A DNA stretch of 64,000 nucleotides, from positions 21,772,576 through 21,836,575 of the forward strand of contig NC_057719.1 in the NCBI RefSeq assembly GCF_004010195.1. The letters run 5' to 3'. Below, in pieces: positions 5,105 through 58,724 of this stretch. A model generated the notes under the pieces. The model was not told the origin of the DNA and did not search any database. It saw only the letters and a program-made list of their open reading frames with translations. The position numbers were made by a program, and so were the translations under genes. The stretch is from Chiloscyllium plagiosum. Taxonomy: Eukaryota. The number at the start of each line of letters is the position of its first letter. The stretch's first letter is position 1.

Positions 5105-5240
5105 AGTACTGATGACGAGTTACTAGAACTCAAAATATTAACTTTGTTGTCTTCCCCCGGATACTGCCAGAACTGCTGAGTTTTCCCAGCAATTTCTGCT
5201 TTTGTTTCAGATCTCCAGCATTCGCAGCGCTTTGTTTTAT
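5105..5240 (+). mobile_element. Penelope-type terminal-repeat fragment (family A) with decayed hammerhead core
   Basis: CTGATGA-C-GAGTT/AACTC stem-AAAA, followed by the family A body (ctgctgagttttcccagcaatttctg...ctccagcattcgcagc). Confidence 0.7.
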
Positions 5241-5605
5241 CTTTTTCTCTCTTATCTGTTCTTGGGTAGTGAGTGATACTGGCTAAATGAAAGTTTCTGC
5301 CTCCACTCTGTTTCCTTGGGGAGATGCTGCTGGACTGCCTCCATGAATCACTGAGTTTACTTATGAAGATGTTCAGTAAAAAGATCCATATTGTACTTCG
5401 CATTCATTATGTACGGGATAAGAGAAGCCCAAGGTTACTTTATCTGGAGGCTGAGCTGTCTTGCCCCTACCTAAACTCTTGCATTCTCCATTTTGTAAAA
5501 AAATTCTTTTTAGTGTTCCTGAGTAGTATCCCTCTTTGTATTTTCACACTCCTTAATGCTCTGCTAATAGTAACAACTTAAATGCTGTGCTATCCAGATT
5601 TCAGA

Positions 5606-5725
5606 GGGCCCCTCTTGTGGCTCAGGCGTAGTGACACTGTCCCTATCCCTAAACCAGGAGACCTGGGTTCAAGTCCCAACTTGATGTGTAATTACATCTC
5701 TGAATAGATTGATTCAGAAAAATCA
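5606..5725 (+). mobile_element. Short tRNA-derived SINE
   Basis: A-box-like tggctcaggcgtagtg and B-box-like gggttcaagtccc. Confidence 0.5.
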
Positions 5726-7389
5726 GTTAATCAAAAATGAAAGCAGACCCCATTCTCTCCTGACCGTCCCCCTCACTTTGAAAAAAAAAATCCAGAATTC
5801 AGCTACTTCAATGAAGTCTGGGGTTTGAATCACTCTCGGCCTACATGGCTCGACACAAACAGCCAGGATTTAACTGAACTCAAGGCAATTCAAGCTTTTA
5901 AGATATCTTTACGCTCTTGACGTCATTGCTAGGGTATTTTTTTCCTTTGCTCTTCTCGTAAATAGTACCAGGAAATAGTTACAGTGTAAAGGGTGTAAAG
6001 GTGAAAGCTAGTTCTATGCTCCAGTACATGACAAAAGGAAATGAAACACATTTGGTGTGGGTTTTATGCCATTACTTTCTAAAACATGGCATTTCTAATA
6101 AGCTGGCACCCGAGTCTCGCTATAAGCTAAACATATGCTTTGCAATGGGGAACAACCCTCACCTTCATGTTTTATTCATTTTGACTTGTCCCTGTTTTCT
6201 CTTGATTACTCCTGTTTTCTCTTGATTTCTCCTGTATTCTCATGAGCACCCACCATTGACTAAGCGTGTTGGCATCTGGCAAGCACACAGTAAGATGTCA
6301 AACCTAGCCAAAATTGGCGAGCATAACAATTGACAGCGGTTTTATCATAATTTGTCTAATTCAGGTGAGGTCAACCAAGTAGTAGCAATGTTAATTGTAT
6401 GTTTAACCCACAGTTGAATCCTGCTATTGTACAGTGAAGGCAATGCCTTCTTTCCCCATAGAATTCTGAAAACTTTGTGAAGTCAGTTGGTTTGATAATT
6501 TACACGTGAATTTGCATAAGTCAATACAAGTGCTTCAACATAAATCAACAGATTTGCAGTGCATAAGAAATCCCATGTGAAAAATGTGCACATTAACAAA
6601 AGTGCCAAACCCACTTGTAATGTTACCATTTGCTACTTTAACACACTATCCTCTTGCCCTGCCACTGAAAAGCCTTTTCTGAAAGCTGCAAATCGCATTA
6701 GCAAAGAAAGCTCTAAATTATATTTTTGTAAAGCCTGCTGTTTTGACAGCATCACTGAGTTGTGACACGGTCTGAATCTATCAACATGTAGAAGGAAAAC
6801 TTTTCTAATAAAAACAGAGTTTATAAAAGGAAAACAAGCAGTAAGCTGTTTTTCTTGTAACTGTGTCTGTGATTCCAGCTGCAGTGTAAGAATAATCTAC
6901 AGAGACATTAAGTGTCCCGTAGTCTGTATCATGCATTTGTTTGGTGAAATGAGGTTGTGAGAACTGAATAACACACAAGGTACTATTCAATGCAAAGCTA
7001 ACTTCTTACCTCATATTAAACAACTTTAGATATTAGTTATATTCATTGATGGGCAAATAGTATTTCAATTGAATTTCCCCTATCTTGATTAGCACAATCT
7101 TGGAAACCTATGGACAGCATGTGTAGCATGTTTATCAATTTTCAAAATTGATTGCAAGATTACCTTTTAGGAAATGAATTACTAGGCACCACTATCAACC
7201 CATTGTTACATTATCAAATGCTGTCTATTTAAAGAATATTAAATGCTTCATAGTAAAATAAATTGAGGGCTGCCATTTCTTAGACTTGCTTTCACTTACA
7301 TTGCTAATTATTGACTGTAACAGGAGTGGACAGTAAGCATATGTTTCCTAAACTAACCAAAAATGTAGACCAATCAGTCATAAAAGTTC

Positions 7390-7630
7390 CAAAGCAGTAT
7401 TCAAATAAGATCAGAGCTGTTCCCCCAGTGTCTTGACCAATATTATCCATCAGCCAGCACCTAACAATATCTGATCTGATAATTTATTTTATTATTATTT
7501 CTTGGAGGTCTGGCTGGCAGACTGGTTTTCGAACAAAGACAAGATTTTAGAATTAATTCAAGAGTTGTAATAAAGCTTGGAAACATTCCGAGGTTATGGA
7601 GACAATATGTAAATAGTCTTTCTTTCTGTC
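7390..7630 (+). mobile_element. Decayed Deu-domain SINE (SacSINE1-like) fragment
   Basis: cccagtgtcttgaccaatattatccatcagccagcac matches the Deu core as I recall it; similar to copies at 39.5, 54.6 and 59.6 kb. Confidence 0.55.
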
Positions 7631-8044
7631 TTCACCTCTTTCCTCCCTGTTTCTGAAACCAACTGAATAGTTATCATAGCTGTACAATACAAACTGTTAC
7701 AGATTGTCATTTTAGGTCGAGAGCCCTCTGTCTTTTAAAAACACAATTTAAAAAGGCACCACCCAAATTGATGTGAACCAGGGACCATCTGAAACAATAT
7801 GTCTTCATTTTTCATCTGCCAGAATTTCCAAATATCCTACTGAGTGAAGGGGAAGCAGCTGTTGTCTGTAGCTGAAGTCGATATCAAAAAAGCAGTTTAA
7901 AACTAAATATTTGTATTGAATTTTCGTCTGTTACCAGTTCTTTAGCATCCAGCATGTCACGATATTTTAAATCACTTCTGGGTGTTAATGTATTTTTAGA
8001 ATTGCTACTAATGAATCATAATTCTACCTGTTATTAAATAGTGA

Positions 8045-8240
8045 AATATAAGAACTAAGTGCAGAAGCAGAGCATTCTGCCCTTTGAGTTTACTCCACCA
8101 CTTAATAGGGTCATGGATGATCTATTTGTGTTTTGAATTCCACATTAATATGTACCCCTGATAACCCTTGATTTCTTGTCTAGCTAGAATATATCCACCC
8201 CATCTTTAAAAAAAAATCAACAACCCCCCCACCTTCTCCA
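8045..8240 (-). mobile_element. CR1-type LINE 3' tail fragment
   Basis: ataagaactaagtgcagaagcagagcattctgccctttgag tail similar to 32.2 kb and 62.8 kb. Confidence 0.6.
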
Positions 8241-8865
8241 TCATAAGTACTCTAGCTACAAGTCAAGGCAGAGGCTCGAAATCCCTGAAGAAAGTAACTC
8301 ACCTCCTGACTCCCCAAAGACTGATAGCTCATTGATAGCTCACTGCTTCTTTTATACATTTGTTGAGCAATGAGGCAAGTTCCTATCTCGGCAGCAGTGA
8401 CTTACCAATTATAGAGAGATGATAAATTGTTAAATGTACTATTAATGACACAACCCTCCTCATTAATATTCAAATTCCTGTCTTACCAAACAAGCTAAAG
8501 AAGTTAGATATCTTGACAAGGAAACCAGAGCAGTTACCCAGTATCTTCAGTTTGTCATTCACTCCAAAGGATATCCATGTAAAATGATGGGCACCAACAT
8601 TTCAGGGCATGCACTGAGAGCATTAACCAAAGCATCTCATAACCATGTACATTGACATCTGACCTATAACACCTCTAAGAGTCTTGATGACACATCTCTG
8701 ATCCACTTACAAAATGTCTCTGCACATCAATGCCACACCTCAGGCTACATCACAACTCTCATTGTAAAGCTGTAGCAAGGGCACTTTGTGCTCAGGGACA
8801 CAAGCCCAGCTCATGCACTGGACCAGACTGCATCTCTGTGCAGCTCATTGCAGTCATAATATTTA

Positions 8866-9040
8866 TTATGTAGAGGTGCCTGTGTTGGACTGGGATGGAT
8901 AAAGTTAAAAATCACACAAACACTCCCTTCATCAGGTCACTGTGGAGCAGGATCATAAGACACAAAGATTTATAGCAAAATATCACAGTGCCATGCAACT
9001 GATACAATATATTGAACAACCCAAATGGTTGTTAAGTTTA
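8866..9040 (-). mobile_element. Penelope terminal-repeat fragment (family C)
   Basis: gtgttggactggg...aaaaatcacacaa...ccttcatcagg...gatcataagacacaaagatttatagcaaa is homologous to 49848-50030. Confidence 0.8.
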
Positions 9041-10377: not shown

Positions 10378-10545
10378 ATAAAAGCAAATTACAGCAGATG
10401 CTGAAAATTGAGCTCACTTTATTTTTGGCAAAACAGTTCTGAAGAAGTCTGACTGGACTTGAGATCTTAACTCTGTTTCTCTTTCCACGGATGCTGCCAG
10501 AGCAGCTGAGTTTCTCCAGCATTCTCTGTGTTTGTGACAGATGCT
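10378..10545 (+). mobile_element. Penelope-type terminal-repeat fragment (family A), partly fold-back
   Basis: gttctgaagaagtctgactggacttgagatcttaactctg...gatgctgccagagcagctgagtttctccagca. Confidence 0.7.
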
Positions 10546-10679: not shown

Positions 10680-11358
10680 CATCCAAAGATGTGCATGTTA
10701 GGTGGTTTGCCCATGCTAAATTGGTCATAGTACCCAGCGATGTGCAGGCTGGGTGGTTTAGCCATGGGAAATGCAGGGTTACAAGGATAGAGTGGGGCGG
10801 GGGGGTGATGGAGCTGGATGGGATGCTCTTCAGAGGGTTGGTGTGGAATTAGAGTCATAGAGATGTACAGCATGGAAACAGACCCTTCGGTCCAACCCGT
10901 TAATGCCGACCAGATATCCCAACCGAATCTAGTCCCACCTGCCAGCACTCGGCCCATATCCCTCCAAATCCTGCCTATTCATATACCCATCCAAATGCCT
11001 CTTAAATTGCACTAGCCTCCACCACATCCTCTGGCAGCTCATTCCATACACGTACCACCCTCTACATGAAAAAGTTGCCCCTTAGGTCTCTTTTATATCT
11101 TTCCCCTCACCCTAAACCTATGACCTCTTGTTCAGGACTCCCCGACCCCAGGGAAAAGACTTTGTCTATTTATCCTATCCATGCCACTCATAATTTTGTA
11201 AACCTCTATAAGGTCATCCCTCAGCCTCCGATGCTCCAGGGAAAACTGCCCCAGTCTGTTCAGCCTCTCCCTGTAGCTCAGATCCTCCAACCCTGGCAAC
11301 ATCCTAATGGATCAAATGGCCTGCTTCCAAACTGTAGGGATTCTATGATTCTATGATT
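10680..11358 (+). mobile_element. 3' part of an HE1-related V-SINE, interrupted by a LINE
   Basis: SINE tail runs 10680-10850 and resumes at 11306 (aatggatcaaatggcctgcttcc...attctatgattctatga). Confidence 0.75.
10851..11305 (-). mobile_element. CR1/HER1-type LINE 3' fragment
   Basis: Highly similar to 2500-2945. Confidence 0.9.
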
Positions 11359-13191: not shown

Positions 13192-13382
13192 AGGTAAAAA
13201 CTATGACTGCAGATGCTGGAAACCAGATTCTGGATTAGTGGTGCTGGAAGAGCACAGCAGTTCAGGCAGCATCCGAGGAGCAGTAAAATCGACGTTTCGG
13301 GCAAAAGCCCTTCATCAGGAATAAAGGCAGAAGCGTGGAGCCTGAAGCGTGGAGAGATAAGCTCGAGAGGGTGGGGGTGGGC
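13192..13382 (-). mobile_element. Penelope terminal-repeat fragment (family B)
   Basis: Homologous to 42063-42256, 43007-43140 and 55983-56190. Confidence 0.8.
13287..13322 (-). ncRNA. Minimal type-I hammerhead ribozyme motif (family B)
   Basis: Minus strand: attc CTGATGA A GGGC TTTT GCCC GAAA C GTC gatt. All core residues present, GUC cleavage triplet, stem I short and imperfect. Confidence 0.75.
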
Positions 13383-13424: not shown

Positions 13425-14272
13425 GGAAGTGATTTGATCAACTGGGCCAATTGGCTCAGGAGTGGAAGATGGAGTTTAATTTGAATAACTATGAGGTATT
13501 GCATATTGATGAAACAAACAAGGGGAGAACTTATACAGTTAATAGTAGGGCCCTGGGTAGTGATGTTGGACAGAGAGACCTGGGGTTCAGGTACATAGTT
13601 GTTTGAAAGTTGCATCAAGGTGCACAGGGCAGTTAAGTTGTTCAGCATGCTGGCGTTCACTGCTCAGACCATTCAGTACAGGAGTTGGGCTAGCATGTTG
13701 AGGTTGTACAGGACATTGGTGAGGCCATTTTTGTTGTACTGTGTACAATCTGGTTACCCTGCTACAGGAAGGAAATTATTAAATTGGAAAGGGCTCAGAA
13801 AATATCTACCAGAATATTTCCAGGAATGGGAGGTTTGAGTTATAATGAGCAGCTATGTAAGCTGGGAATTTTTTTTACTCAAGTGTAGGAGGTTGAGGGG
13901 TGACCTTATAAAGGTTTATAAAATCATCAGGGTCATGAGATAAGGTGAACATCTAAAGTCATTCTCCAAGGGCCAGAGAGTCAAAACTAGGAATGTTTTT
14001 AAGGTTAGAAGAGAAAGATTTAAAAGGGACCTGAGGGACAACTTCATCACACAGATGGTGGGTCGTATGTGGAATGAAGTGCCAAAGGAAGTGGTGCATG
14101 CAGGTATAGTTGCAACATTTAAAAGGTATTGGAGAGGCACACAAATAGGAAACGTTTAGATGCATATGGACCAAAGGTAGGCAACTGGGGCTAGTTTAGT
14201 TCGGGAAAGTTGTTTGGCATGGACAAGTTGCACTAAAGGGTCTTTTTTCCATGCTCTATGAATCTATGACTC
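13425..14272 (+). mobile_element. CR1/HER1-type LINE 3' fragment
   Basis: ORF piece MLRLYRTLVRPFLLYCVQ; ends ctctatgaatctatgactct. Confidence 0.9.
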
Positions 14273-14304
14273 TGTGCTGATTTTGCTACCAACCTCAAAG
14301 AAGG

Positions 14305-14595
14305 GTGTCCACAGTTTGAGGTTAGAGGGGAAAGAATAAATGGGAACCTGAAGAGCAACTTTTTCACATAGAGAATGATATCCATATGGAAGGAGCTGCC
14401 AGTGGAAGTGGGAGTGCTTAAAAACATTTAAAAGGCATTTCGGCAAACACATGAATAGGAAGGGTTTAGAGGAATATGGGCCAAGTGCAGGGAAATGGGG
14501 TTAATGTGAATGGATATTTTGGTCAGTTTAGACCAGTTTGGGCCAAAGGGCCTGTCTCCATGCCGTAAGACTCTATGACTGTCTCCATGACTCTA
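14305..14595 (+). mobile_element. CR1/HER1-type LINE 3' end
   Basis: cacagtttgaggttagaggg...ggaaggagctgcc...gactctatgact. Confidence 0.85.
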
Positions 14596-14739: not shown

Positions 14740-15048
14740 GGGCGGCATGGTGGCACAGTGGTTAGCACTGCTGCCTCACAGCGCCGGAGACCCGGGTTCA
14801 ATTCCCGCCTCAGGCGACTGACTGTGTGGAGTTTGCACGTTCTCCCCGTGTCTGCGTGGGTTTCCTCCGGGGTGCTCCGGTTTCCTCCCACAGTCCAAAG
14901 ATGTGCAGGTTAGGTGAATTGACCATGCTAAATTGCCCGCAGTGTTAGGTAAGGGGTAAATGTAGGGGTAGTGGTGGTTTGCGCTTCGGCGGGTCGGTGT
15001 GGACTTGTTGGGCCGAAGGGCCTGTTTCCACACTGTAATGTAATCTAA
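14740..15048 (+). mobile_element. HE1-type V-SINE, full length and little diverged
   Basis: tRNA head gggcggcatggtggcacagtggttagcactg...gggttcaattcc, V-domain tgtgtggagtttgcacgttctccccgtgtctgcgtgggtttcctccgg, taatctaa tail. Confidence 0.95.
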
Positions 15049-17850: not shown

Positions 17851-20374
17851 ATTGTAAACTTCAGAACTTCAATAAGTGTTCATGGATTGAATGAATCAAA
17901 GATAAAATTACACATGGAAAGAAGTAGCAAGAACTCTGCCTGGAATAACCTATTAAGGGACAAGGACAAACTTACACAAGAATTTAAAGCAATTAGCCAT
18001 GCCTGGGAAGAAGAAGGAGTCAGTTACATGGACAAACCTGTTGTCCAATGTCTTGCTGCACACACACTCCTTCACTGTCTGAGGAGTGGTGAATGGTGAT
18101 GAACATTACATTATCATTGAACGTGCCCACTTTGAACATTGTTGGACCAAGTATGATCATCATAACAATCACCTTTGAGTGATTCAATGCCCCAAGGCTC
18201 TGGAGAGAAAACTTGGGGTTAGTTGCCAAACTCACTGTCCAAAGTCTTCTGTTAAAGATACAGATTTCAGATGAGTACACAATGCAGTACTGGTGTAAAC
18301 TGTTACTTTCACATCAAAGTTCATACATAAGTTCGATCAGTTCAAGGATAAGTACACTTACTTCAAAGGAGAATGAGAGAGAAGAAAGTTGACAGGAGGG
18401 AAAAAAAATGAATCAGTATATTTAGCAGGCAGAAGATTAAATATTTTTAAAGTTAAGTGAAAGTTTACTTGCAAGCAATACATCACTGAACCATGCCACT
18501 TTTTGTATCCAAATCCAATTTGTGATTGATTAAACCATATTCAAACACATAACTTATCTAGATCAGTCTCAGACCCATTTATTATTGACAGATGAGCATT
18601 TACCTCAGATGAAAAATTCTAACATAGTGGCGTATGAAATTTTGACGATAAAAATATTCCCAATGTTATTCCCTCTTTTTTTTCTCACTGCCCATGGTTT
18701 AATTCCCCACTTTAAAGCTGGGTTACCATCAAAACAAAAGGGTACATTAATTTCAGTGTCATCATCTGAAGTTTCTTTTCCTTAGAGCAGCCAGTTAATA
18801 CAGATGGAAGGCATCCTTTGAAGAATGTCCAGATTAAATTTTTACCGTAAATAATGGAAACTTTTACCAGACAGCTCAGACATTAAGGAGCAGGCTGTCA
18901 CATGGTGGTTCAGATGGATTTGATCTGCTTGCACTTAAGCAACAGCAACTGGTGATAAAATAACATTGTCAGAGCAGAATGCTATTAACTCTTCATTTGC
19001 AGTTTTGAAAGAGAAGCTATTTTCACTTGTGCATGCGAACAAATCCGAAGGCCGTAAATAAAGAACAGTCACTAATGTATTCAGTAAGGAATTAAGAATG
19101 AACTTCAAATAAAAATCAGACCATAGAAATTGCTTCCATGAGAAATAGTACACTATATAAGTGAGAAAGGAAAAGAAAGCTTTGTCAATGAAGATAGATG
19201 AAAATTAGTTATGTTGAGGCTTATGTGGAGGATAAAAAACAGCATTGACCTAGAAGACTGAATAGCCTTTTTACGTACTGTAAGTACTACGTCAATATAG
19301 GAAAATCAAAGACACCTGTCCTAAAATTGTTGAAGTAATGTTGCTGTTTGCAAAGATTTTCCATAACTTTTGTAATATTGTCATAGTCATCATCCAATAT
19401 GACTGAAATAGTCAGTATGGTGCCACTGTTGTACCTCTTGATATAGTCATGTTAGTGCTTCTTGAGCATGCTTTTAGTGGCAGTGGCGAGGAGAGGGAAT
19501 TGGAAGCAAATGGGAACACAGCTGCTGTTCTACTCTGCCTGAGGCATTGTGCAAAAATAATGTGCCGGCTAGCTGAATTGGGTAATTGTTGGACTCAGGG
19601 CCAGAAGCCTTTAGATTTAAGTCCAGGCAGGAATTTTTTCAGTCTTTCATCCTTCTGAGGTGAATTAGATCAATCCCAAGCCTTTGGACATGCAGAGAAA
19701 GACAGGAGCCTGCAGCAATAGAAGTTTATTTCCTACGCAGCTGCTGCATCGTCTGACTATTTACCAATGGAATCCAGAATCAGTGCAGCATCAAATAGGC
19801 AAGCTGTGCTTCATGCATGCTGGCTCAACAAATAATCTCTGTCTCTGATTGTGTAGTGATTGAGGGTTGGAGTTGCCAATCCATTATGAAAGCTTTTATA
19901 ACAAGTGTGAAGTGAGAGTCATTCCAGTGCAATGTATAATCCAGCTGACTGGGCTCCAACACGTTGCATTGTGCTGTGAGGTGGGAAGATACGATTTTGA
20001 TGCCATCAGTTTCCCACGCAACGGTTTCTCAGAATGACAGCAGTGCCATTGTGTGGGTAATTCTTATTTAGGAAGGTGAAAGCAGACAGGTAGTGAGGTT
20101 CACAGGATAGGATCCTGCAACAACTGGACTATGACCCACATTCAGGTAGATTTTTCAATACTTGTATTTGGATATGTATTTGGATTGCTTCAACATATTG
20201 AATAAGAAAGAATCAGGGATGGAGGAATAAAATGGCCTTGACAAAGGCTACCTGAGCTTCTACCATTAGGTTCCTTTCCTTGAAATTAAGCAGGATTTAG
20301 TCAATCTAATAGATAGAATTATAGAGATCTATCACAAAGAAGGCACAATATGTGATGAAGGGCTATTGGGATCA

Positions 20375-20485
20375 AGATCTTAACTCTGCTATTCTCTTTA
20401 CTGTTTCTGCCAGACCTGCTGAGCTTTTTCCAGCACTTTCTGTTTCTGTGTTACATTGCCAACATCTGAAATTCAATGTTTTTAT
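20375..20485 (+). mobile_element. Penelope-type terminal-repeat fragment (family A)
   Basis: ttaactctgctattctc...ctgccagacctgctgagctttttccagcac. Confidence 0.65.
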
Positions 20486-20859: not shown

Positions 20860-21258
20860 ACCACACATAGGTAGAGATGAGAAATACTCCAGGTTATAGG
20901 AGTGGTCATCTGGAAAATCCCCATATCTCAACATTTTCCCAGAGCACCTCAAAACCAAAAAAAAAGAATTGCAGATGTCGGAAATCAGAAATTGGATGCT
21001 GGAAAACTTAGCAGGTCAGACAGCATCTGTAGAGAGAAAGCAGAGTTAATGTTTCTGATCCAGTGACCTTTCTTCAGAATGCAGACCTGTTGAGTTTATC
21101 CAGCAATTTCTGTTTTTATTTCTGATTTCCAGCATCTGCAATTCTTTTGATTTTTCTTTTTGTTTTGGAGTGCTCTGGGAAAAAAGTTGAGACATGGAGA
21201 TTTTCCAGATGACCACTCCTATAATCTGGGATATTTCTCATCTCTACCTGTGTGTGGT
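20860..21258. repeat. ~400-bp imperfect inverted repeat centred on a fold-back family A element
   Basis: 20860-20955 is an imperfect reverse complement of ~21162-21258; the inner arms are family A sequence in opposite orientations. Confidence 0.9.
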
Positions 21259-21309: not shown

Positions 21310-21436
21310 AGTGATATGGAAAACTCACCAGGTCAGGCAACATCTGTGGAGAGAAAGCAGAACTAATGTTTCAGGTACAGTGACCTTTCTTCAGAATGCA
21401 GACCCGCTGAGTTTATCGAGCAATTTCTGTCTTTGT
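21310..21436. mobile_element. Second copy of the fold-back family A centre
   Basis: Same junction cagtgacctttcttcagaatgcagacc as at 21061-21088. Confidence 0.8.
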
Positions 21437-26450: not shown

Positions 26451-27177
26451 AAAATGCCAGGAATCATGGGGGACAGCTGTGGGCTGACAGTGTTTGTCCA
26501 TGTGCACATGTGCTTTTAAAGATGGCTGGATGCCAGGGATGCCAGTTCATTCTAGGATATATCAGCAATGCTGAATTGCTCCAGGTATGATCAGCAATGG
26601 AATGGGACTAGAATCAGATAAGAGGGGGAGTCATAAGTGTTGGGTAAGTAGGTAATGAGGCAGTTTTGGGGTGTAAGAAAAGTTTATCTTTGGTGGTGGA
26701 AATGTTTACTGGCCCTTGCAGAGAGAAACCCTCCATAAAAACCAATGAAACTGACACTTAGCCAACAAATTGCAAGATCCAGGTCTTTATCTCAACCCAA
26801 AGACAGTGTGTAACATCTGGAGAATGGATGGAGTCAATGTAAGATGCATATTAATCCTTTCTTACACAATAGCAGATATATCTTATGCTCATCAAGTGCA
26901 TATGTGCTCAATGGGAAAGTAAATAATTTGGGCTCATTTGCACTGTTGCTTTGAAATTAAATTGATTGTCAAAAATAAAATCAAGAAGTCAGATCTAAGC
27001 TTAAAATGTCGTATGGATGACATTAGCTTGTTCCAGGAGTAAGAAATAGATTCATTCACAGCCAACATCTGTTTTACTCCCTGCCTGCTACTCTTGTCAT
27101 TCAAAGTGAATGAATTTCAAATAGTCAGCCCTGCACAAAAGCAGTTTAGGATATAAGTCAGGTCCATGAGCACTCTA

Positions 27178-27305
27178 AAATAAAACAAAGAATGTCAGAT
27201 GCTAGCAGTCTGAAGCTAACAAAAACAGAACCTTGGCAGTTCTGGCAGCACCTGTGGCAAGAAAACAGTGTTAATATTTTGAGTCCAGTGACACGATTTC
27301 AGAAG
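27178..27305 (-). mobile_element. Penelope-type terminal-repeat fragment (family A)
   Basis: aaaacaaagaatgtcagatgctag...ggcagcacctgtgg...gagtccagtgac...ttcagaa. Confidence 0.65.
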
Positions 27306-37312: not shown

Positions 37313-37410
37313 TAGTGAATCAACAGGGTTTTCCAATAAAGCAGCAACATTGAGAACTCTTTTCTGCTTCAAACCCAGCCCAATGAGCCTAGACATCACC
37401 AAAATTATTA

Positions 37411-37630
37411 ACAACAAAAACAGAAATTTCTGGAAAAGCTCAGCATCTGTGGAGAGAAATCAGAGTTAACATTTCAGGACGCCTGACCCTTTCTCAGAAC
37501 AGTCTGAGGAAGGGTCACTTGATCCAAAGCATGAACTCTCACTTCTCTCCACAGATGCTGCTGTGCTTTTCCAGCAATTTCTGTTTTTTTGTTTCTGATT
37601 TACAGTATCCACAGTTCTTTGAGTTTTTAG
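37411..37630. mobile_element. Fold-back family A Penelope-type element with two decayed hammerhead cores
   Basis: Two arms in opposite orientation meet at ~37500; flanked by caaaattatta (37400-37410) and cagaattatta (37631-37641). Confidence 0.8.
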
Positions 37631-38339
37631 CAGAATTATTATTTTTAATATATAGTGGGGTTTGAACTCTTCTTGGTTCATAGTCAGCACTATAAGCACA
37701 ATACCATGAAACTCATTTTTAATGATATCCTTGTTCAATTATTTCATAAAAGAGAAAAATGCCTACAATCTAGTAAGGACTCAGACTCACTAATGAAGCA
37801 CAGGTATTATTCAACATAGTTTCTTTTAAGAAACATTTTCTTTGGGACAAATTGTATTGCAAGTGTCAAGTTTGAAATAATATACAATAAAGCATTTTTA
37901 ACAATAATTCTTTTTCTCTTTATCTACCCTAGAATTCAACTGTGAACTCTGATTTTTGTTTTAAACTACACAAGGATGCATGATAATTCTTTCTGTTTAT
38001 ATTAACTGTCTGTACTTCCAACACAGGAAATGACTTCTACTTTATGAAAATATACCAGCAACATTTTCATATCTTTATTAGGTTCAGTCTACTGCCCTTT
38101 TAACTTTAACATAGCTACTGTAAAGAAAAGAGAGAGAACAGTTTGGTCAGTTGGCTTTCTCAAAATTAATAGCCCATCCTTTTCATTTAAATTAAAGAGC
38201 TCCCTGAAGTAAATTCAATAAATAGCACGCAAAGTATTATGATATGGAATGACAGGGTGGATGCTTTTGTGAAAGTGTCATTTTAAATTCCTTCTGTAGC
38301 ACTGCCAATCCAGCAACTTGAGCTCAATATTACGGTGGT

Positions 38340-39554: not shown

Positions 39555-39716
39555 AGATCAGAAATCACACAACACCAGTCCAACAGATTTATTTGAAATC
39601 ACAAGCTTTTGGAGAGTGGCTCCTTCATCAGGTGAAACTTCGTCAGGATAAGCACTGGTGTTGTGTGCCTTCTGACCGTGTCCACCCCAGTCCAATACCG
39701 GCAGCTCCACATCACA
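39555..39716. mobile_element. Fold-back Penelope terminal-repeat fragment (family C-related)
   Basis: tcacacaacaccag...ccttcatcaggtg, then the inverted ctggtgttgtgtg...cagtccaataccggcagctccacatc; hammerhead GAAA decayed to AAAA. Confidence 0.75.
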
Positions 39717-39743: not shown

Positions 39744-40901
39744 CTCCATCCATGCAACCCAGAAATTCCTAAAAATCATCAAAAACACCAAAATAGAGGA
39801 AGATGAAGCAATGATCTCATTCGACGTAACAGCACTGTTCACCTCCATCAACATCGACCTAGCAAAGGAAACACTCACCACACTTTTAGAAGAGACCAAC
39901 ACACACACACCAACCACCATCAATCACATTACCAAGGAAAACATCATGAAGCGAGTGGACCTGTGCCTCACTACCCACTTCACTTTCAACAACATAGTCT
40001 ACAAACAAACCAACGGCACACCCATGGGATCTCCGCTATCAGGATTCATAGCAGAAGCGGTAATGCAAAGGCGAGAACAAACAGCACTACCAATCATCAA
40101 ACCAAAAATCTGGGTTTGCTACGTAGATGACACCTTTGTCATCACAAAACGAAACAAGACAGAAGAGACATTTAACATCATCAACAACACCTCACAGGCA
40201 TAAAGTTCACCAAGGAGGAAGAAACGGACAACAAACTCACATTTCTGGACGTCACAGTAGAAAGAAAGGACATGGGAGAATTACAAACCTGCGTATACAG
40301 AAAACCAACAAACACTGACCAAATACTCAACTACGCCAGCAATCATCCCAACACACACAAACAAAGCGGTTTCAGAACACTATTCCAACGAGCCACCACA
40401 CACTGCAGCACAGACGAACTTCGAAAAACAGAGGAGAACCACCTATATGACGTATACAGGAAGAACGGATACTCAAAAAACACAGTGCGCAGATTCCTCA
40501 AGAAAAAACCACAACAAGCAGACCAAAAAAAGACATGACCCTCTCTCCCTCGTAGCCCTATACACGGATGAAAAAAGCCACCATTTCGACTGGGACAACA
40601 CATGTATCCTGGGACAGGCTAAGCAAAGACGTGCCAGAGAATTCCTAGAGGCCTGGTACTCCAACCACAACGCCATAAACAAATGCATAGATCTAGATGC
40701 CATCTATCAACCCCTCAGAAAATGAACAGGAAATGACATCACCACAAACCCCAGGAACCCCATCCAGGAGAAAGATATAAATAGAAAGCAGGAGACAACA
40801 GCTTCGCTTCACTTGGAGGTCACCACTGATGATGCTACCTAGCCAGGTAATGAAACGTCTGGAGATCAAACCTACAGCTCAGTGAGCAAACCTACACCCT
40901 A
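39744..40901 (+). mobile_element. Penelope-like element (Poseidon/Penelope type), 5'-truncated and internally deleted
   Basis: RT motifs SFDVTALFTSI, QTNGTPMGSPLS and YVDDTF; thumb YRKPTNTDQILNYASNHP; GIY-YIG C-terminal half HHFDWDNTCILG...REFLEAW. Confidence 0.92.
40823..40862 (+). ncRNA. Minimal type-I hammerhead ribozyme motif (family D, 3' end of the Poseidon-type element)
   Basis: cca CTGATGA T GCTACCT AGCC AGGTAAT GAAA C GTC tgg: stem I cca/tgg, stem II with one mismatch and one G-U pair, GUC triplet. Confidence 0.75.
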
Positions 40902-42062
40902 CTTCTGAGATATTGCTATTCACAAACTGTTACATCTCCTACTTTGCAGCAGTCACTACATTTTAAAAACACTTCATTAGCTGTAAAGCACTTTGCAGCA
41001 TCCTGACAATATGAAGGGCGCTTATAAAAAGCTAGTGGAGTCTTTTCTTTCCTTCTTGTCTGTATCAGAGGACAGAGCCTTACCCAACTCTGGACAGCCT
41101 GTACTGCTGCAGCGTGTGAGTGATGATGGACTGTGCTTCGAGGGAATAGCCACTTCACTCCCCCTTCTCCAATACAGGTTCCTGCCAGCCTCTGCTGCTT
41201 CTTCCCGTGAATCCTGAGACAACATGGTCCTCCCCTGCTAGGGGCTCAGCAGGAGGCCAGTCTCCAGCAATCCTCTGACTACAAATGGCCCAGGACATTG
41301 CTTACTCAATCAACTGCAGAGCTGTTAGTGTGTGAGGATCTCACTCTGTCAGCTTAGGGAACCCACCGAGATATCATCATTCATATAGCTGGGTGGGGAC
41401 AGTTTTGATAATAGTACAGTCCCTGTAAGCCCACTGTGGTGGCTACTCTCAATAACTATCACCCATCTTGTAGCCTGCTGTGCCGTCTGATGCTGTTCCA
41501 CGTACCTATCATACATTTCAGTTCTGTCCATCACCACCCTCAATCCCATCTCCACAGGTCTCTCAGCTTTCACCAAACCTCCCCAGCCTTGCCTCACACA
41601 CCTCTTTAACTAGTAATCTCCCTGCTACAGACCTTTGATCAACTTCAAAGAACAGCTCCAGGACATGACTTACCAGAGATCTGACTGCTACCTTTGCAGC
41701 TCTCAGACTGATGTGTGATTACTATTACAGAGTGTTCACAATAAAATGTTGTCCACTCCCTGAGCTGCATTCCGAAAGATTGAGGAGATACCACAATGAC
41801 AACTGATCTTGGCCAAGCTCCTGGGACAATGCGTGGACTGCTCCCTTGCTTGGGCTAATGATTAGACCTCACCCAGTTTCCAACATATCCTTTAGGTTAA
41901 ATAAACATGTCATGTTTGCCTGTCTATATGCAAGATTGTGCATCGATCTGGCAGTACCGAGAGCCCTTTGCTCTGCCTGAAGCACTAGTCCACTAGCAGA
42001 CATGGCAATGCAAGGCAAGACAATGATGTTATGAATATGCAGGTAGGTGCTAAGTGAACAAG

Positions 42063-42256
42063 GAGAAAGTGAGGACTGCAGATGCTGGAGATCAGAGCTG
42101 AAAATGTGTTGCTGGAAAAGCGCAGCAGGTCAGGCAGCATCCAAGGAACAGGAGAATCGACGTTTCGGGCATAAGCCCTTCTTCAGCCGAAATGTCGATT
42201 CTCCTGTTTCTTGGATGCTGCCTGACCTGCTGCGCTTTTCCAGCAACACATTTTCA
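42063..42256. mobile_element. Fold-back family B Penelope-derived short element with 14-bp TSD
   Basis: Near-perfect inverted arms; gctaagtgaacaag at 42049-42062 and 42257-42270; minus-strand core CTGAAGA A GGGC TTAT GCCC GAAA C GTC. Confidence 0.9.
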
Positions 42257-43006: not shown

Positions 43007-43386
43007 CTGAAAATGTGTTGCTGGAAAAGCGCAGCAGGTCAGGCAGCATCCAAGGAGCAGGAGAATCGACGTTTCGGGCATGAGCCCTTCTTCAGGAATG
43101 AGGAAAGTGTGCCCAGCAGGCTAAGATAAAAGGTAGGGAGAAATGAGGAAACTGGCGAAATCTGAGTTCATCCCTTGTGGTTGGAGGGTTCCTAGGCGGA
43201 AAATGAGGCGCTCTTCCTCCAACTGTCGTGTTGCTATGGTCTGGTGATGGAGGAGTCCAAGGACCTGCATGTCCTTGATGGGGTGGGAGGGGGAGTTGAA
43301 GTGTTGAGCCACGGGGTGGTTGGGTTGGTTGGTTCGCGTGTCCCAGAGGTGTTCTCTGAAACGTTCCACAAGTAGGCGGCCTGTCT
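43007..43386 (-). mobile_element. Penelope-like element 3' end (GIY-YIG C-terminus plus family B repeat) with 14-bp TSD
   Basis: ERFREHL...PVAQHFNSPSH...LEEERLIFRLGTLQPQGMN; ttatttgacaagaa at 42993-43006 and 43387-43400. Confidence 0.92.
43064..43099 (-). ncRNA. Minimal type-I hammerhead ribozyme motif (family B)
   Basis: attc CTGAAGA A GGGC TCAT GCCC GAAA C GTC gatt. Confidence 0.75.
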
Positions 43387-47084: not shown

Positions 47085-47190
47085 CTAAAGTCATTATAAA
47101 CACAGAGAACATCAACAGTTCTGGCAGCATCTGTGGACAGAAAAACACAGCAAGCATTTTCCGTCTGGTACAATTCTTCTTCAGAGCTGA
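47085..47190 (-). mobile_element. Penelope-type terminal-repeat fragment (family A)
   Basis: cagttctggcagcatctgtggacagaaaaacacag...ttcttcttcagagct. Confidence 0.6.
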
Positions 47191-47741: not shown

Positions 47742-47879
47742 TTAGCAGTTCTGATGAAGAGTCACTTGACCAAAATGTTAATTCTGTTTTCTCTCCACAG
47801 ATGCTATCAGACGTGCTGACCTTTTCCAGCAAGTTTTTGTTCTGATTTTGAGCATCTGCAGTCCATTCAGTTTTGATTT
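47742..47879 (+). mobile_element. Family A Penelope-type short element with 14-bp TSD
   Basis: gttCTGATGAagagtcacttgacc... decayed core; agtctttcttaagt (47728-47741) and agtcttccttaagt (47880-47893). Confidence 0.8.
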
Positions 47880-47949
47880 AGTCTTCCTTAAGTCCTTAGC
47901 CACTGTGAGACTACACTTTGAGGAATCACCTCTAGGCCGAAAATCCACG

Positions 47950-49847: not shown

Positions 49848-52272
49848 GTTAAAAATTACACAACACCAGGTTATGGTCCAACAGGTTTATTTGGGAGCAC
49901 TAGCTTTCGGAATCCTGCTCCTTCATCAGGTGGTTGTGGAGTATAAGATCATAAGACACAGATTTATAGCAAAAGTTCATTGTGTGATGCAACTGAAATT
50001 ATATATTGAAAAAGGTCTGGACTGTTTGTTAAGTCTCCCATCTTTTAGATTGACCATGTTGGTTTCAGTTCTTTCATATGTAAATCTCGGAACTTTTTTT
50101 AAAGTTACATTCTCAAGTGAACTTTATCAAAAGGTGCCACGTCAGCTCAGATAATGCATTGAAGTTGTGAGGTACCCTGTGTGAGGCTGTCTGTGCCCCA
50201 GTGTTTAGACTGATTCTCTTTCTAAAAAGGGATTTTCAGAACCTTGCATAGATTCATGCAGTTTTTGAGCAAAATAAAATGTAATTCTGCAAGTACAAAT
50301 TCACCCACAAACTTATATATGTATGTGGGTGTGTGTGTGTGTGTGTGGGGGGGGGGGAGGATATGAGTGCCTGTAAGAGAGTGCGTGTATATGTATGTGT
50401 GTGAATGTGAGTGTAAAGGGATATAAGTCTGTGAGAGGGGTGACGTGTGTGTGTGTGCGTGTGTGTGTGTGTATGTGGTGCAGTGGGGTCAACTGTAGTG
50501 TGACATGAACCCAAGGTCCCAGTTGAGGCCATCCCCATGGCTTGGCTATCAGCCTCTGCTCGGCCACTTTGCATTGTTGCCTGTCACGAAGTCCGCCTAG
50601 GAGGATGGTCACCCGAATGTCCCAGACCGCTGAAGTGTTCTACGATTGGGAGGGAACACCCCTGTCTGTTAATTTTTGTGCTGTGTCCATTCATATATTG
50701 CCGTAGCCTCTGGTCGGTTTCCCCAATGTACCATGCCTCAGGGCATCCTTGCCTACAGCATATGAGATAGACAACATTGGCCGAGTCACGAGTACCTGTC
50801 TCATACATGATGGGTGGTGTCCCCACGTGTAATGGTGGTATCCATGTGGATACTCTGACACGTCTTACAGCATCCACCGTGACCAGATTGCTATGAACAA
50901 TGATCTATTTGAAGTTTGGTGGTTGTTTAAAGGTGAGCAGTGGAGGTGTGGGGAAGGTCTTGGCGAGGTGCTCATCCTCATTGATAATGTGTTGTGGGCT
51001 GCGAAGAACACGGTGTAGTTTTATGGCTCCTGGGTACCCTGTCGGTTGCAGCTCATGTCTGTCTCCTGAGGAGGTCATTATTGTTTCTCGCTGTAGCATG
51101 TTGGAATTGGCAGTTGGTGAGTTGAGCATTGTACCACATTCTTATGAGGGCATCCTTCAGCACCTTCAGGTGCCTGTCAAGTTCCTTCTCATCTGAACAG
51201 ATCCTGTATATGCGTAGGGCTTGTCCATTGTGGATCACTGTTTTAAGGTTTTGGGTGGAAGCTGGAGAAGAGTAGCATCATGAGGTTATCTGTGAGTTTG
51301 CTGTAAAGTGAGGTGCTGAGGTGCCCATCCTTGATGGCAATGCATGTATCCAAGAATGAGACAGGTAGTAGAGAGTAGTCCATGGTAGATCTGATGGTGG
51401 AATGAAACTCGTTGATATCACTATTTAGTTATTTCAGTAACTCCTTGCCATGGGTCCAGAGGAAGAAAATGTCATCAATATACTTGGTGCATAGTGTTGG
51501 TTGGAGGTCCTGTGCAGAAAGGAGGTCTTATTTGAACCTGTGCCTGAAAATGTTGGTATATTGGGCTACAAATTTTGTCCCCATGACTGTTGCGTGTGTC
51601 TGGATGAAAAACTGATTGTCAAAGGTGAAAATGTTGTGGTCAAGGATGAAGTGGATGAGTTGTAGAATGGTGCTTGGAGATTGGCAGTTGTTGGTGTTGA
51701 GTACTGAGGCTGTCACAGCATTGCCATCATCGTGAGAGATGCTGATGTCGAGTGCTGAGACATCCATTGTGATGAGGAATGTTCTCAGTTCAACTGGTCC
51801 ATGGGTGCTGAATTTCTGTAAGAAATCACGACAAAAGCTGGGCGTCCCCTGTAATGGGTTTCAAGATGCCTACACACACACACACACACTTGTGGGGTGA
51901 ATTTGTACTTGCAGAATTACATTTTATTTTGCTCAAAAACTCCATGGAAGGTTCTAGAAATAAAATCAGTCTGAACACTTGGGCACAGACAGCCTCACAC
52001 AGGGCACCTCACAACTTCAATGCATTATCTGAGCTGACGTAACACCTTTTGATAAAGTTCACTTGAGAATGTAAAAAAAGTTCTGGGATTTACATATGAA
52101 AGAACTGAAACCAACATGGTCATTCTAAAAGATGTGAGACTTAACAAACAATCCAGGTCTTTTTCACCATATAACTTCAATTGCATCACACTGTAAACTT
52201 TTGCTATAAATTCTGTGTCTTACGATCTTATACTTCACAACCACCTGGTCCAACACTGGCATCTTCAAATCA
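49848..52272 (-). mobile_element. Penelope-like element (Neptune type), decayed RT and GIY-YIG, with inverted terminal repeats
   Basis: Minus ORF pieces MDVSAL, NIFTFDNQFFIQTHATVMGTKF, YIDDIFFLW and NVVYLICCRQGCPEAWYIGET...EHFSG; ~49925-50345 is inverted at ~51870-52248. Confidence 0.93.
49898..49932 (-). ncRNA. Minimal type-I hammerhead ribozyme motif (family C)
   Basis: cac CTGATGA A GGAG CAGGA TTCC GAAA G CTA gtg: stem I cac/gtg, palindromic AGCU at stem III, CUA triplet. Confidence 0.75.
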
Positions 52273-52481: not shown

Positions 52482-52790
52482 GTTTACATAGATTACTTAC
52501 AGTGTGGAAACAGGCCCTTTGGCCCAACAAGTCCACATAGACCCGCCAAAGCGCAACCCACCCAGACCCATTCCCCTGCATTTACCCCTTCACTTAACAC
52601 TACAGGCAATTTAGCATGGCCTATTCACCTAACCTGCACATTTTTGGAGTGTGGGAGGAAACCAAAGCACCCGGAGGAAACCCTCACAGACACGGGGAGA
52701 ATGTGCAAACTCCACACAGTCAGTCGCTTGAGGCAGGAATTGAATCTGGGTCTCTGGCTGTGAGGCAGCAGTGCTAACCAGTGTGCCATT
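52482..52790 (-). mobile_element. HE1-type V-SINE
   Basis: Reverse complement of the 14740-15048 copy. Confidence 0.93.
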
Positions 52791-54805: not shown

Positions 54806-55783
54806 AAGTGACAGAGTACAACGTGATAAAGTGACAGAATACAACATGATAAAGTTCATTCTACACTGATATTCATGTATATTGTGGTTTCACAATGTTT
54901 GCTGTAAATGTAAAAACATGTATTACAGTCTAGCTTTGTTACATATGCTGTTTCAAGGCAAAGGAACATCATTGTGAAGCTCAGGAAGTGCACAATGTAG
55001 TTGGGTGCAAAACGGCATGAATTGAATTTAAAACCATGATGTGAAATCAGAAGGTGTCTGTGTGCAATGAGTGACTTCCCTGCCTTTCAGTCACACGATG
55101 TGTTCAGGCCTGGGGCTTGATAACCAAAGAATGTGATTTCTATATTGTGGCCAAGTGTAGGTTGAACATGAAATTGTAAGTCTTTTCATGAACAAGACGT
55201 AGTAAGATTGGGAGAGAAAACTGTAGCCTCTACCCTCATTATTCATATCTTCAGGACTACAACATGTGTAAAAGTTCATGCTACGCAGGAACCTGTACCT
55301 CTTGAGAGTCTAGTTAACTCAGTCATCCAGACAGCTATCATAGATCAAATTGATGTCAACAACATGAGGTTCAATTTGGAACCTGCTTCTTTGACCTACC
55401 CATGTTGGAGGTTGTAGCACTGTGAGTTGGATCTGCTTTCTGCTAGAGAACTGAAAATGGGTGAAACCAATTGAAGCAGGCCATCTAACATCATATTAGC
55501 TCCCATCATTGCAAGAGCATGTTCTAAAATAAGTTCCTACACAGCTAAGATAAATACTCTTGATAACTCTTTAAACTTAAGCTTGCAGCAAGTCAATGAA
55601 CCTTCTAGCTCCCTGTTGACATTGAAATATAATCAACATTTTGAATGACAACATTCAGATTCCAGACAGTGTTGCAGTGATTATGAGCTCTTGTGCAGAA
55701 CCAGAGAGTACCAAGGCATGTTGAGAATTTAAATTCATATATCTTTTAATTTTTGGTCCGATGATGTAAGTTGTAAAATGTTA

Positions 55784-55915
55784 AACAACAAAAAACACAG
55801 AACTGCAGATGCTGGAAATCAGAAATTGCTGGAAAAGCTCAGCAGCTCTTGTAGTATCTGTGGAGAGAAAGCAGAGTTAACATTTCGGGTCCAGTGACCC
55901 TTCTTCAGAACACAA
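55784..55915 (-). mobile_element. Family A Penelope-type short element with 13-bp TSD
   Basis: ttgtaaaatgtta (55771-55783) and ttgtaaaatgcta (55916-55928). Confidence 0.85.
55876..55911 (-). ncRNA. Minimal type-I hammerhead ribozyme motif (family A)
   Basis: gtt CTGAAGA A GGGTC ACTG GACCC GAAA T GTT aac: stem I gtt/aac, perfect 5-bp stem II, GUU triplet. Confidence 0.7.
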
Positions 55916-55982
55916 TTGTAAAATGCTACTTGTTTCTTTGCAGGGAAAGCTATTTCCCACACTAGATTCTTGTCCACTCTTG

Positions 55983-56190
55983 GCGAAAGTCAGTACTGCA
56001 GATGCTGGAGATCAGAGTCAAGATTAGAGTTGTGCTGGAAAAACACAGCTGGTCAGGCAGCATCCAAGGAGCAGGAAAATCGATGTTTCAGGTAAAAGCC
56101 TTGAAGGACTTTTACCCAAACTGTCAATTTTCCTGCTCCTCAGATGCTGCCTGACCTGCTGTGTTTTTCCAGCACCACTCTAGTCTTGAC
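55983..56190. mobile_element. Fold-back family B short element with 15-bp TSD
   Basis: Inverted arms meet at ~56100; tcttgtccactcttg at 55968-55982 and 56191-56205. Confidence 0.88.
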
Positions 56191-58724
56191 TCTTGTCCAC
56201 TCTTGTCCACATGAGTTGACTGACTCTTTAGGCCATTTGAAATGGATAGGCTCTCGACTGCAAACTTGCTCAGGTCTGCCAGCTTTATGTTACTATAACA
56301 AACTGTGCCTGAAACTGGTTACTCTAGTGGGATACACACTTAGGACAAACTTTCAATTTCAGCAAGGATATATAACTATTGGTTTTGGATTGCTGGCCTG
56401 TTATACATCTCAACTAGTTTTTCTCAGGCAGCAGATACGACACCACCAGTTCTTAAGGTCCTGCCAAAATTAGAAGTTCTGCTTTGGTTCCTATGAATCA
56501 TAGAATTATACAGCACAGAAAAAGTTTGACTTATTGTGAGTGTGCTGACATTTTGAAAGGACTAGCAATTAAATCTGTGTTCTTTTCAAAGTCTGGTAAA
56601 TTTTTCTCCCATCCCTTTCTCTCTTGCATTAGCTTTCTGCTCAGAACGTTGAAACGAATGAAATCCTGCCATTGTCTACTTGCTATTTGTCTGCTAATAT
56701 GTGATTCTGGTCCACATCTTTCTCAGCTCACCACCCCCTCCTCCAGCACAATTAGGGTTGGGAAATAAATGGTGGGTAAGGAAGCAACACCCATATCCCA
56801 GTTCCCATTTTAACTTGCTGCTGTTAGCCATTGTTGTTTAAACGTTGTTACACTTGGTTATGCTTTATCTTTTTTCATATTCTAAACTCTACTTCTATTG
56901 ACATTGTGATTAGAATGGTTCGAATGAAACATGCTTCCCTTCTCCAGAATTTGGTCCTTCACTACATCCTTTCTCATTGGGCTACACTGGCCAGGATAAG
57001 TCTCTTGTAGATACTTCTAGAATCCCTCCATCTCTTTCAACTGTCCTTATTTCATTGTAAATGTAGACAATGGGTGTTTCTCAATAAGACAAGTCTGTAG
57101 TTTGTAACTAGTTTCATTTAGATGTACAAAAGAGGTTTCTGATGCATTCTGTAAATATACTTTTGTTGAATTCTATAGAATATTTAGCAAAATATTTCCA
57201 ATGTCTAAACCGTGCCTTCTTCACAAAAACAAATTGTATCATATTCAGAATTTGATGTAAAGATGAAAACAACATTTTTGGAGGCCTACAGGGAAGGATC
57301 AGATGATTAAATTGAAGCCAAGCATTGACTCAAACCTGAAGGTCAGTTGGCTGTCTTCTATGCTCGCAATGATTCTCTTTCTGGTTAAACGATACATTTG
57401 GATCAAAGGAGATGAGAAAGGGAAAACTAGATGACATTTAAATTGACTGGTCCCTTTTAAACTCGACAAGGCTTTTATTTCTCACAAAACATGTAGCATG
57501 CATAATATATTTCAATACCTTCTCAATACACAGGACAGAAGCATAGCTTCAGTGCTCTTTAACTGCGACTACAATGGAAATCAACTATTCCCCAGTATCC
57601 TCTTCAGATCAGGAAACAGCTCAGTTTATACTGGGTGCAAGAGCACAGCTATGTCATTCCAGACGGAGTGCACTGGGAAGTACTTGAACTGAGAAATTTA
57701 AGCAGCAAAATACTGAAAGATTACTACTTCACACTACATAAAGCATATGAAATTGTAGGAAATAATTTGGATCTGACCCAGTAGCTTTCTGACAAGGTCA
57801 GTTCTCATGTTAAGACAAGCTACCTACACCACCTTTTAAACAGGGCCCAGTGAGAATGATGTCAGTTAAATCAAAAAATGAAGTTTGTGAATCATGTCTG
57901 TTCCTATCAGAGTTCCAACTTTCTTCTGGGTTCCTGCACTGATTTTACAAATATTTATGTAAAACCTGCTTTCGAAAATATGCACAAAAAAAAACAACAG
58001 ACTTAATGGGAATAATAAGGGCTTGGATTTGACAGACTTTAATTATCACTTTTGTTGCGATTTTTCTCATGAAGGCATCACAAAAGAAATAGTCGTGACC
58101 AATGGAAAATTGTCATAACACCTGGGTGTGTTGAAATCAAAAGCAAGTCTTCAAAAATTGAAGGAAACACTAGCTGTTCAGTGAGATGTTTTGGAATTTC
58201 TTTTGATAGGCATGATCTCTGCACTACAGGGCTCATAAATTAGAGTTCGTAGAAGTGATTATTTTTGTAGATTAACTGATGGAGACAAGGGCGTTGTACA
58301 GAAGCCAAACAATGAACAGGAACCTTAAGTTTAAAGGTGATGAGCAAAATATTTCACCATTCTTTTGACTGAAGAAAACAGAGACAGGAATTCAAGTCCA
58401 AAATTTATTTTACAATGTAACAATGCAAACCTAACTACCTATAAAAGCCACTCTTGATTATCTAAGCATTAAGTCATTTTTTCTTCCCACCTTCTGCAAC
58501 AATGGTAGCACTTTGCTGTTCCAGTCTTCTGACATTTTTTTTACAGGGGTGTTAACTGCCAGCATTTGTGTGAGATAGCTGCATTTTATCAGCAATAAGC
58601 TATTTAACCACAGAAGGCTTCATATCCACGATTAACTTAGATAGTAATAGTTACCCAAATGTATACTATGAAATCACTCTGGGTAAAGCTTAACTGTATT
58701 TATTCTGTGTTCCTTTCAAACACT

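Follow-up and report, generated by a model that had tools for sequence, protein, structure and literature searches.

We analyzed a 64,000-nucleotide stretch of the genome of the carpet shark Chiloscyllium plagiosum (contig NC_057719.1, positions 21,772,576 to 21,836,575 of the forward strand), called the window below and numbered from its first letter. Scattered through the window are short repeats of four families, A to D, each carrying a motif of the hammerhead ribozyme, and the question is their relation to Penelope-like elements (PLEs). The layout sought was helix I, CUGANGA, one extra base, helix II, GAAA, a 2-nucleotide helix III, UH, and the returning strand of helix I. Similarity searches, together with a covariance model built on 14 A and B copies, gave 17 cores with both halves present, 11 of them from family A, three from B, two from C, and one from D. 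Broken ribozyme pieces lie besides near 8940, 52245, and 56104. Most copies are named here by their family and the position of C3 in the core.

A strict descriptor of the minimal hammerhead (the extra base, helix II of at least 4 bp, a pairing 2-nucleotide helix III, and helix I of at least 2 bp) matched the window four times, always on the minus strand, with C3 at 55908, 49929, 43095, and 13318. The same descriptor never matched any of 200 dinucleotide shuffles (1-kb blocks), in which a loose form gave a mean of 0.085 matches and a maximum of one. The extra base between A9 and 10.1 is present in all four descriptor matches and in all seven copies that were dissected, and the type-I order CUGANGA, GAAA, UH is free of core defects in 6 of the 14 aligned A and B copies, in C49929, and in D40826. 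The layout described by the first-pass annotation was thus recovered at its coordinates in every family, and the count of 17, plus the broken pieces, bears out its estimate of over a dozen intact or decayed cores. An Rfam covariance search, which that annotation had proposed as a check, returned 11 matches at an E value of 10 or less for the window, none of them to a hammerhead family; this could be taken to mean that the motifs are chance look-alikes, although a missing match would be expected for motifs without helix III. The chance explanation is refuted by four strict matches against none in 200 shuffles, and it also has to face an identical layout, in an identical position, in three unrelated PLE lineages, so we give it practically no weight. 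The model built on A and B copies scored family C over the core only (E values of 0.014 and 0.5), did not list D, and brought out no further families in the window. When metagenome contigs were scanned for a pattern anchored on the tail, 39 loci matched, of which none had an upstream core or any likeness to the window beyond the pattern, and a scan of viral contigs for the pattern gave nothing.

Every feature is kept in only three copies, B13318, B43095, and C49929. The two B copies have a helix II of 4 pairs, ACGU in helix III, a GUC triplet, and a helix I of 2 pairs followed by U.U and then A-U; C49929 has a helix II of 4 pairs (one of them G.U), AGCU, the triplet CUA, and a helix I of 3 pairs. 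The B positions reported earlier hold, with the correction that contiguous pairing in helix I is limited to 2 bp; in B42186 this helix is lost altogether at the inversion joint. For family A the hammerhead at 55876 to 55911 likewise stands as located and has a helix II of 5 bp, but its helix III reads AUGU, a decayed CpG and an imperfect palindrome, and its triplet is GUU. The helix TACCT/AGGTA quoted for D40826 turned out to be the inner part of helix II only; the outer pairs are G.U at 10.1-11.1 and a C x A mismatch at 10.2-11.2, and the copy failed the descriptor, with ACGU and GUC present. In C39631, G12 is changed to A. The G10.1-C11.1 pair is found in six of the seven dissected copies, the D copy with its G.U being the exception, and a palindromic 15.2-16.2 without loop III is seen as ACGU in three B copies and D and as AGCU in both C copies, in none of the 11 A copies.

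The families had been described as four unrelated ones. With the ribozyme excluded, the tails of A and B aligned at z 9.5 to 20.5 in nine of nine pairs; C or D against any other family reached a best z of 2.9 among 20 pairs. Because the homology of A and B extends outside the ribozyme, the alignments group the copies into three lineages, A plus B, C, and D. The two related families differ by U-A versus C-G at 10.4 and at 2.1-1.1 and, given their homology, these helix differences would be true compensations between relatives. In the 14-copy A/B alignment, 74.7% of the helix cells are paired, against 24 to 39% for slid partners, and 6 of the 11 pairs of helices I and II have changed on both sides among these 14 related copies of the window. 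We regard the covariation of helices I and II as suggestive, not proven.

Coding remnants bear on the identity of the elements. In the D element a piece of reverse transcriptase (RT) matches RVT_1 with an E value of 4e-10 and is closest by identity to PLE-type proteins of the carpet sharks Stegostoma and Chiloscyllium (58 to 92%), and a deletion takes out most of the endonuclease. A peptide read over the D core aligns with residues 17 to 31 of a longer relative, P0009, with 8 of 15 residues identical, and therefore the start of the D open reading frame (ORF) overlaps helix II. In the C element, remnants of RT and of a GIY-YIG domain have relatives in sharks, and the linker carries a Neptune-like CxxC motif. 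The 88 codons that precede B43095 resemble the C-terminal half of a GIY-YIG endonuclease (profile E value of 1.1e-4; Atlas GIY-YIG cluster at 0.94). Within the window, no coding remnant was found in the other three B insertions or in any A copy. The order of RT followed by a C-terminal GIY-YIG domain is thus seen in C and D, and B shows the endonuclease half only; the statement that B, C, and D all adjoin such remnants is right for C and D and, for B, applies to one insertion of four. The position of the hammerhead in the pseudo-long terminal repeat (pLTR), next to the end of the ORF, is seen in D, C49929, and B43095, which lie downstream of ORF remnants, and holds for A by homology to B only. 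The Penelope origin of A, which the first-pass annotation had inferred, is supported by that tail homology, by target site duplications (TSDs), and by 5' inversions, and the identification of the motifs as minimal type-I hammerheads of PLEs is supported as well.

Nine of the insertions are flanked by TSDs. These are perfect 14-mers at 42186 and 43095, and are 9 to 18 bp long with zero to two mismatches at 5109, 47751, 55908, 56104, 39631, 49929, and the D element. Inverted 5' arms occur at 21077/21394, 37497/37504, 42186, 56104, 39631, and 49929. The 3' ends of B lie at +89 or +124 from C3, 35 nucleotides apart, so that the tail between them is optional; for endonuclease-bearing PLEs, the portion of the literature consulted describes 5' truncation, an inverted 5' copy, a TSD, and an optional tail of 30 to 40 bp. 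B43095 reads, in order, as a C-terminal GIY-YIG remnant (43124 to 43386), an intact hammerhead, and the short 3' end, and B42186 has the long 3' end on one arm and the short end on the other. B13318 has an undefined 5' boundary, and its flanks yielded neither a TSD nor a coding remnant. C49929 combines RT and GIY-YIG remnants with a 3' pLTR that has an intact hammerhead, and with an inverted 5' pLTR (51873 to 52272) from which the ribozyme is deleted; the D element has an RT remnant, an internally deleted endonuclease, and a 3' pLTR with its hammerhead. On the 5' side, the mutual similarity of the independent A insertions ends less than 10 nucleotides upstream of C3 in nine of nine cases, and where TSDs set the 5' end, in three insertions, it lies at -5, -5, and -9 from C3. 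Family A copies start 3 to 9 nucleotides before the core both in the window and in thousands of contigs, and the B and C insertions at 42186, 56104, and 39631 likewise start within 10 nucleotides of C3. The predicted cut site lies within every copy, and therefore the RT likely copied uncut ribozyme RNA. The insertions are collected in Table 1.

Table 1. Hammerhead-bearing PLE insertions and copies in the window, by family
Feature	Position	Strand	Details
Family A insertion	55781..55913	-	Hammerhead 55876-55911, C3 = 55908, predicted cut after 55879
TSD of A55908	55769-55780 / 55914-55925		12 bp, 1 mismatch; 5' end 5 nt before C3
Family A insertion, core decayed (G12>A)	5104..5240	+	9-bp TSD, 5095-5103 / 5241-5249
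Family A copy, decayed, short 3' end	10434..10528	+	
Family A copy, decayed	20350..20483	+	
Family A copy, C3 = 21077, 5'-inverted tail arm	20953..21161	-	Within 400-bp palindrome 20860-21258
Partial duplicate of A21077, C3 = 21394	21317..21434	-	Same inversion joint; 88% identity over 118 nt
Family A copy, core decayed	27177..27304	-	
Head-to-head A pair, C3 = 37497 (-) and 37504 (+)	37410..37633	.	Joined at helix I; both decayed
A-type copy, strongly decayed, C3 = 47184	47105..47186	-	
Family A insertion, C3 = 47751, G12>A	47742..47879	+	14-bp TSD, 1 mismatch, 47728-47741 / 47880-47893
Family B copy, all core features, C3 = 13318, ACGU, GUC	13196..13322	-	Predicted cut after 13291
Family B insertion with 5' inversion, C3 = 42186	42063..42256	-	Perfect 14-bp TSD, 42049-42062 / 42257-42270
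Family B insertion, C3 = 43095, predicted cut after 43068	43007..43386	-	Perfect 14-bp TSD, 42993-43006 / 43387-43400
Family B head-to-head insertion, core destroyed at joint	55983..56187	.	18-bp TSD, 1 mismatch, 55965-55982 / 56188-56205
Family C element, C3 = 49929, AGCU, CUA, predicted cut after 49901	49848..52272	-	12-bp TSD, 2 mismatches
Short family C insertion, C3 = 39631, G12>A, inverted tail arm	39557..39712	-	14-bp TSD, 2 mismatches
Family C pLTR piece	8863..9037	-	Ribozyme 3' half deleted
Family D element, C3 = 40826, ACGU, GUC, predicted cut after 40859	39747..40908	+	13-bp TSD, 2 mismatches

Several arrangements around these insertions were noted in passing. About 35 nucleotides (39712 to 39747) separate the short C insertion from the D element, which has the opposite orientation, and about 70 nucleotides separate A55908 from the B insertion at 56104; PLE insertions may be clustered. 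Immediately before the C39631 core, the inversion joint holds a short second core-like word (39650 to 39631, minus strand). The 400-bp palindrome has 75% arm identity and is centered on A21077, and both of its arms run about 100 nucleotides past the usual A tail. Near it are the 118-nucleotide direct duplicate at 21317 to 21434 and an inverted pair, 21265-21321 / 21633-21689, and the region looks like a local fold-back rearrangement or the product of a 3'-extended template.

Other copies of the A and B sequence were sought by aligning four public sequencing runs to 55740 to 56230 at a likeness of at least 80%. The matches, which are not copy numbers, came to 121,356 contigs in X1, 97,830 in X10 (another organism), 13,420 in X16 (a third organism, RNA by guess), and 4,040 raw RNA reads in X21, a poly(A) single-cell library that is no test of cleavage. 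On the decayed B arm, the X1 majority restores the stem II G (98%), C11.1 (70%), and G16.2 (56%), and loose ends at 56089 and 56100, among those listed, have continuations that contain helix I and an entire core. Over A, among the variants listed, the contig depth shows C at 15.2 in 28 to 45% and T at 11.1 in 34 to 45%. The depth over A does not drop at the predicted cut at 55879 and declines across the core. The best-supported loose ends among those listed are at 55910 and 55911, with 1255 and 2130 contigs in X1 and 1208 and 2109 in X10; their agreement is 0.34 to 0.41, and therefore the A copies do not share upstream sequence. Inversion joints also fall at 55910/55911. The X21 RNA reads fall on either strand in numbers that agree to about twofold, and neither their starts nor their ends pile up.

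The first-pass annotation had taken the hammerheads to be the real RNA-level system in the window, a reading that the analysis does not support. The copies here are truncated relics, and the A cores decay like their flanks. In nine A copies, counted without 21394 (a duplicate) and 47184 (highly divergent), the core matches at 87 of 99 positions (88%) and the tail majority at 330 of 392 (84%; p = 0.43), so the comparison of core with flanks that had been suggested does not show the core to be better conserved. Of 18 core CpGs in these copies one is intact; among the 17 others, 14 have become TG, CA, or TA, which fits a neutral decay of methylated cytosines after insertion. For the inverted insertions, folding predicts long hairpins (-106 to -142 kcal/mol, from -106.5 for 37410 to 37633 to -141.9 for B42186) in which the motif would be buried. 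None of the 25 tandem-repeat rows of the window contains a core.

The copies are very probably 3'-end (pLTR) insertions of three PLE lineages with the known minimal hammerhead, and are themselves likely inert and neutrally decaying. In the parent elements, cleavage after N-U-H is predicted only when two copies pair their 4-nucleotide palindromes (ACGU or AGCU) in trans and, by analogy with published work on other PLEs, would probably be helped by an element protein. Reverse transcription would start some 75 to 130 nucleotides downstream of the core, in B at two alternative sites 35 nucleotides apart. The RT would pass through the uncut ribozyme and usually stop or fold back at or just past the core, which would leave short copies with TSDs and head-to-head inversions. 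After insertion, the CpGs at 11.1-12 and 15.2-16.2 would go first, likely by deamination of methylated cytosine. Several observations weigh against this account. The covariation is weak when set against shuffles, 11 of 500 for cells paired and 85 of 500 for changes on both sides, in 14 related copies. The endonuclease piece before B43095 has no Pfam match, and no ORF-bearing A copy was seen in the window. Conservation at the non-CpG core positions of A is somewhat above that of the tail (83 of 90; p = 0.065). Minimum-energy folds of two copies, computed for five copies, gave the dimer hammerhead in none. Self-cleavage of these copies is a prediction from other PLEs, and even the parent elements may cut poorly, because helix I of B has 2 contiguous pairs and A uses GUU.

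The sharp 5' ends of family A allow a different account, in which A is a self-standing, nonautonomous element of about 130 nucleotides whose RNA begins at helix I and which is mobilized in trans by a B-like PLE, all else being as in the main account. This would explain why all nine independent insertions lose similarity within 10 nucleotides of C3, the TSD-set ends, the loose ends at 55910/55911 in two organisms without common upstream sequence, and the inversion joints at the same place. B and C insertions with ORF-bearing relatives also end at the core, however (42186, 56104, and 39631), and therefore such an end point needs no separate element; neither a promoter nor a tandem array was found in the window. 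We consider a self-standing A possible, with the odds against it. Equally tentative is a broader proposal for sharks, that the 5' end of the cDNA is determined by the hammerhead fold and not by its cleavage. A would then be a very abundant, hammerhead-first element of about 130 nucleotides that keeps its cut site, and would be either a SINE-like (short interspersed nuclear element), nonautonomous Penelope derivative or the product of an RT that is programmed to stop or fold back when it meets a protein-bound ribozyme.

Another reading, very unlikely in our view, derives the copies from tandem non-LTR retrozymes that replicate as circular RNA and shed them as monomers. PLE-derived arrays are reported in one chondrichthyan genome, in the portion of that source consulted (bioRxiv 10.64898/2026.07.22.740005), religated RNA would explain why copies span the cut site, and two A cores do lie 317 bp apart. 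Those two share 118 nucleotides only, within a local rearrangement, and both lack G10.1, so the pair was rejected as a retrozyme array; cores are missing from the tandem repeats, and circular templates predict a shared upstream sequence that A does not have. A still smaller chance, remote in our estimate, goes to the intact copies being working host ribozymes that cut transcripts of the locus. Three copies do have every feature, and the X21 reads show RNA with A/B sequence at that likeness, but those reads come from many copies, in both directions and without an end pile-up, a distance of 30 kb separates the intact B copies, and the cores decay like the flanks. Moreover, as far as the consulted parts of these papers go, minimal hammerheads are inactive as monomers and weak as dimers (PMC4209133), and the anole hammerhead needed the element protein (PMC11167929).

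Other observations in the window touch the element tails or stand apart from them. In A55908 (55878 to 55859, minus strand) and other A copies, the tail after the cut resembles a 3' splice site, with a pyrimidine run and CAG directly before ATG, and a word there is YUNAY-like, which we take to be the splice consensus. The splice-like AG is absent from most B copies; a splice acceptor at the CAG before helix I in A was considered and found unsupported, the pyrimidine run at 5109 being TSD. In the B tail, an ATG frame (42141 to 42109, minus strand), MLPDLLRFSSNTFSALISSICSPHFL, is open to the end of the element and is possibly an ORF start; the A copies have stops or frameshifts there. A tRNA-like Rfam match at 22054 to 22136 on the minus strand (29.6 bits; threshold, 29) is probably the head of a SINE. 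GC-rich minisatellites lie at 47960 to 48381 (periods of 21, 52, and 65 nucleotides) and 29553 to 29729 (38 nucleotides), and a 67/133-nucleotide array at 24953 to 25207. Ends resembling the 3' ends of long interspersed nuclear elements, presumably CR1-like, are at 2498-3550, 10849-11300, 13882-14550, 27800-28900, 36400-37270, and 61470-62080, and copies of a SINE-like family, presumably HE1-like, are at 14744-14956, 34250-34441, 38435-38626, and 52566-52758.

The known systems are compared here as they appear in the consulted parts of the cited sources. Minimal hammerheads are described in the pLTRs of metazoan PLEs, including the fish Xena, Poseidon, and Neptune elements (Cervera and De la Peña 2014, PMC4209133), and this paper and a review describe dimers that cleave by way of the palindrome, weakly in vitro, and monomers that do not cleave. 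The shark motifs share with them the type-I core, the extra base after A9, the G10.1-C11.1 pair, and the loopless palindromic helix III, as well as the presence of several families per genome, mostly as single copies from truncated PLEs, and of pairs on opposite strands. Of the four bias-free features of that paper, the extra base, G10.1-C11.1, and the palindrome are seen here, and the fourth, compensatory changes, is suggested by the differences between A and B. Helix II of 4 to 7 bp and helix I of 2 to 4 bp are shorter than the 7 to 8 and 4 to 5 bp of the Schistosoma examples, and the density of four strict matches in 64 kb, which comes from one selected window and not from a genome count, would be higher than that of coelacanth and frog at 4,000 to 9,000 per genome. 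Shark terms are absent from two of the paper's three supplement files, the consulted part of its text names no shark, and our literature search found no paper on these shark families; they may have been described before. The CxxC linker is a Neptune trait (Craig et al. 2021, PMC8557442), and family C would be Neptune-like, a clade placement taken from the linker motif alone.

Descriptor matches in shark genes are, on this reading, repeat relics and not host devices. A genome with many copies is a natural record of the sites where RT starts and stops, and copies that end at helix I, not at the cut site, bear on whether cleavage matters for transposition. Non-LTR retrozymes (Cervera and De la Peña 2020, PMC7229834; Li et al., bioRxiv 10.64898/2026.07.22.740005) are likewise short, noncoding, hammerhead bearing, and PLE derived, and monomers occur, but they are defined by tandem hammerhead units, whereas the shark copies are dispersed, TSD-flanked insertions, none in tandem. 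A further parallel is with PAc of Anolis carolinensis (Frangieh et al. 2024, PMC11167929), for which protein assistance, internal RT starts, and unprocessed RNA as the main template are described. In that anole Poseidon element the ORF starts at helix II, as the ATG of D lies at the start of helix II, with the predicted cut 28 nucleotides on versus 26, and its two RT start sites with an optional tail correspond to the two 3' ends of B. PAc is intact and has been assayed, whereas D is 5' truncated, carries an internal deletion, and shows damage in helix II. The motif of the window belongs to the minimal hammerhead class of 2014, and carpet-shark families are added to that known class.

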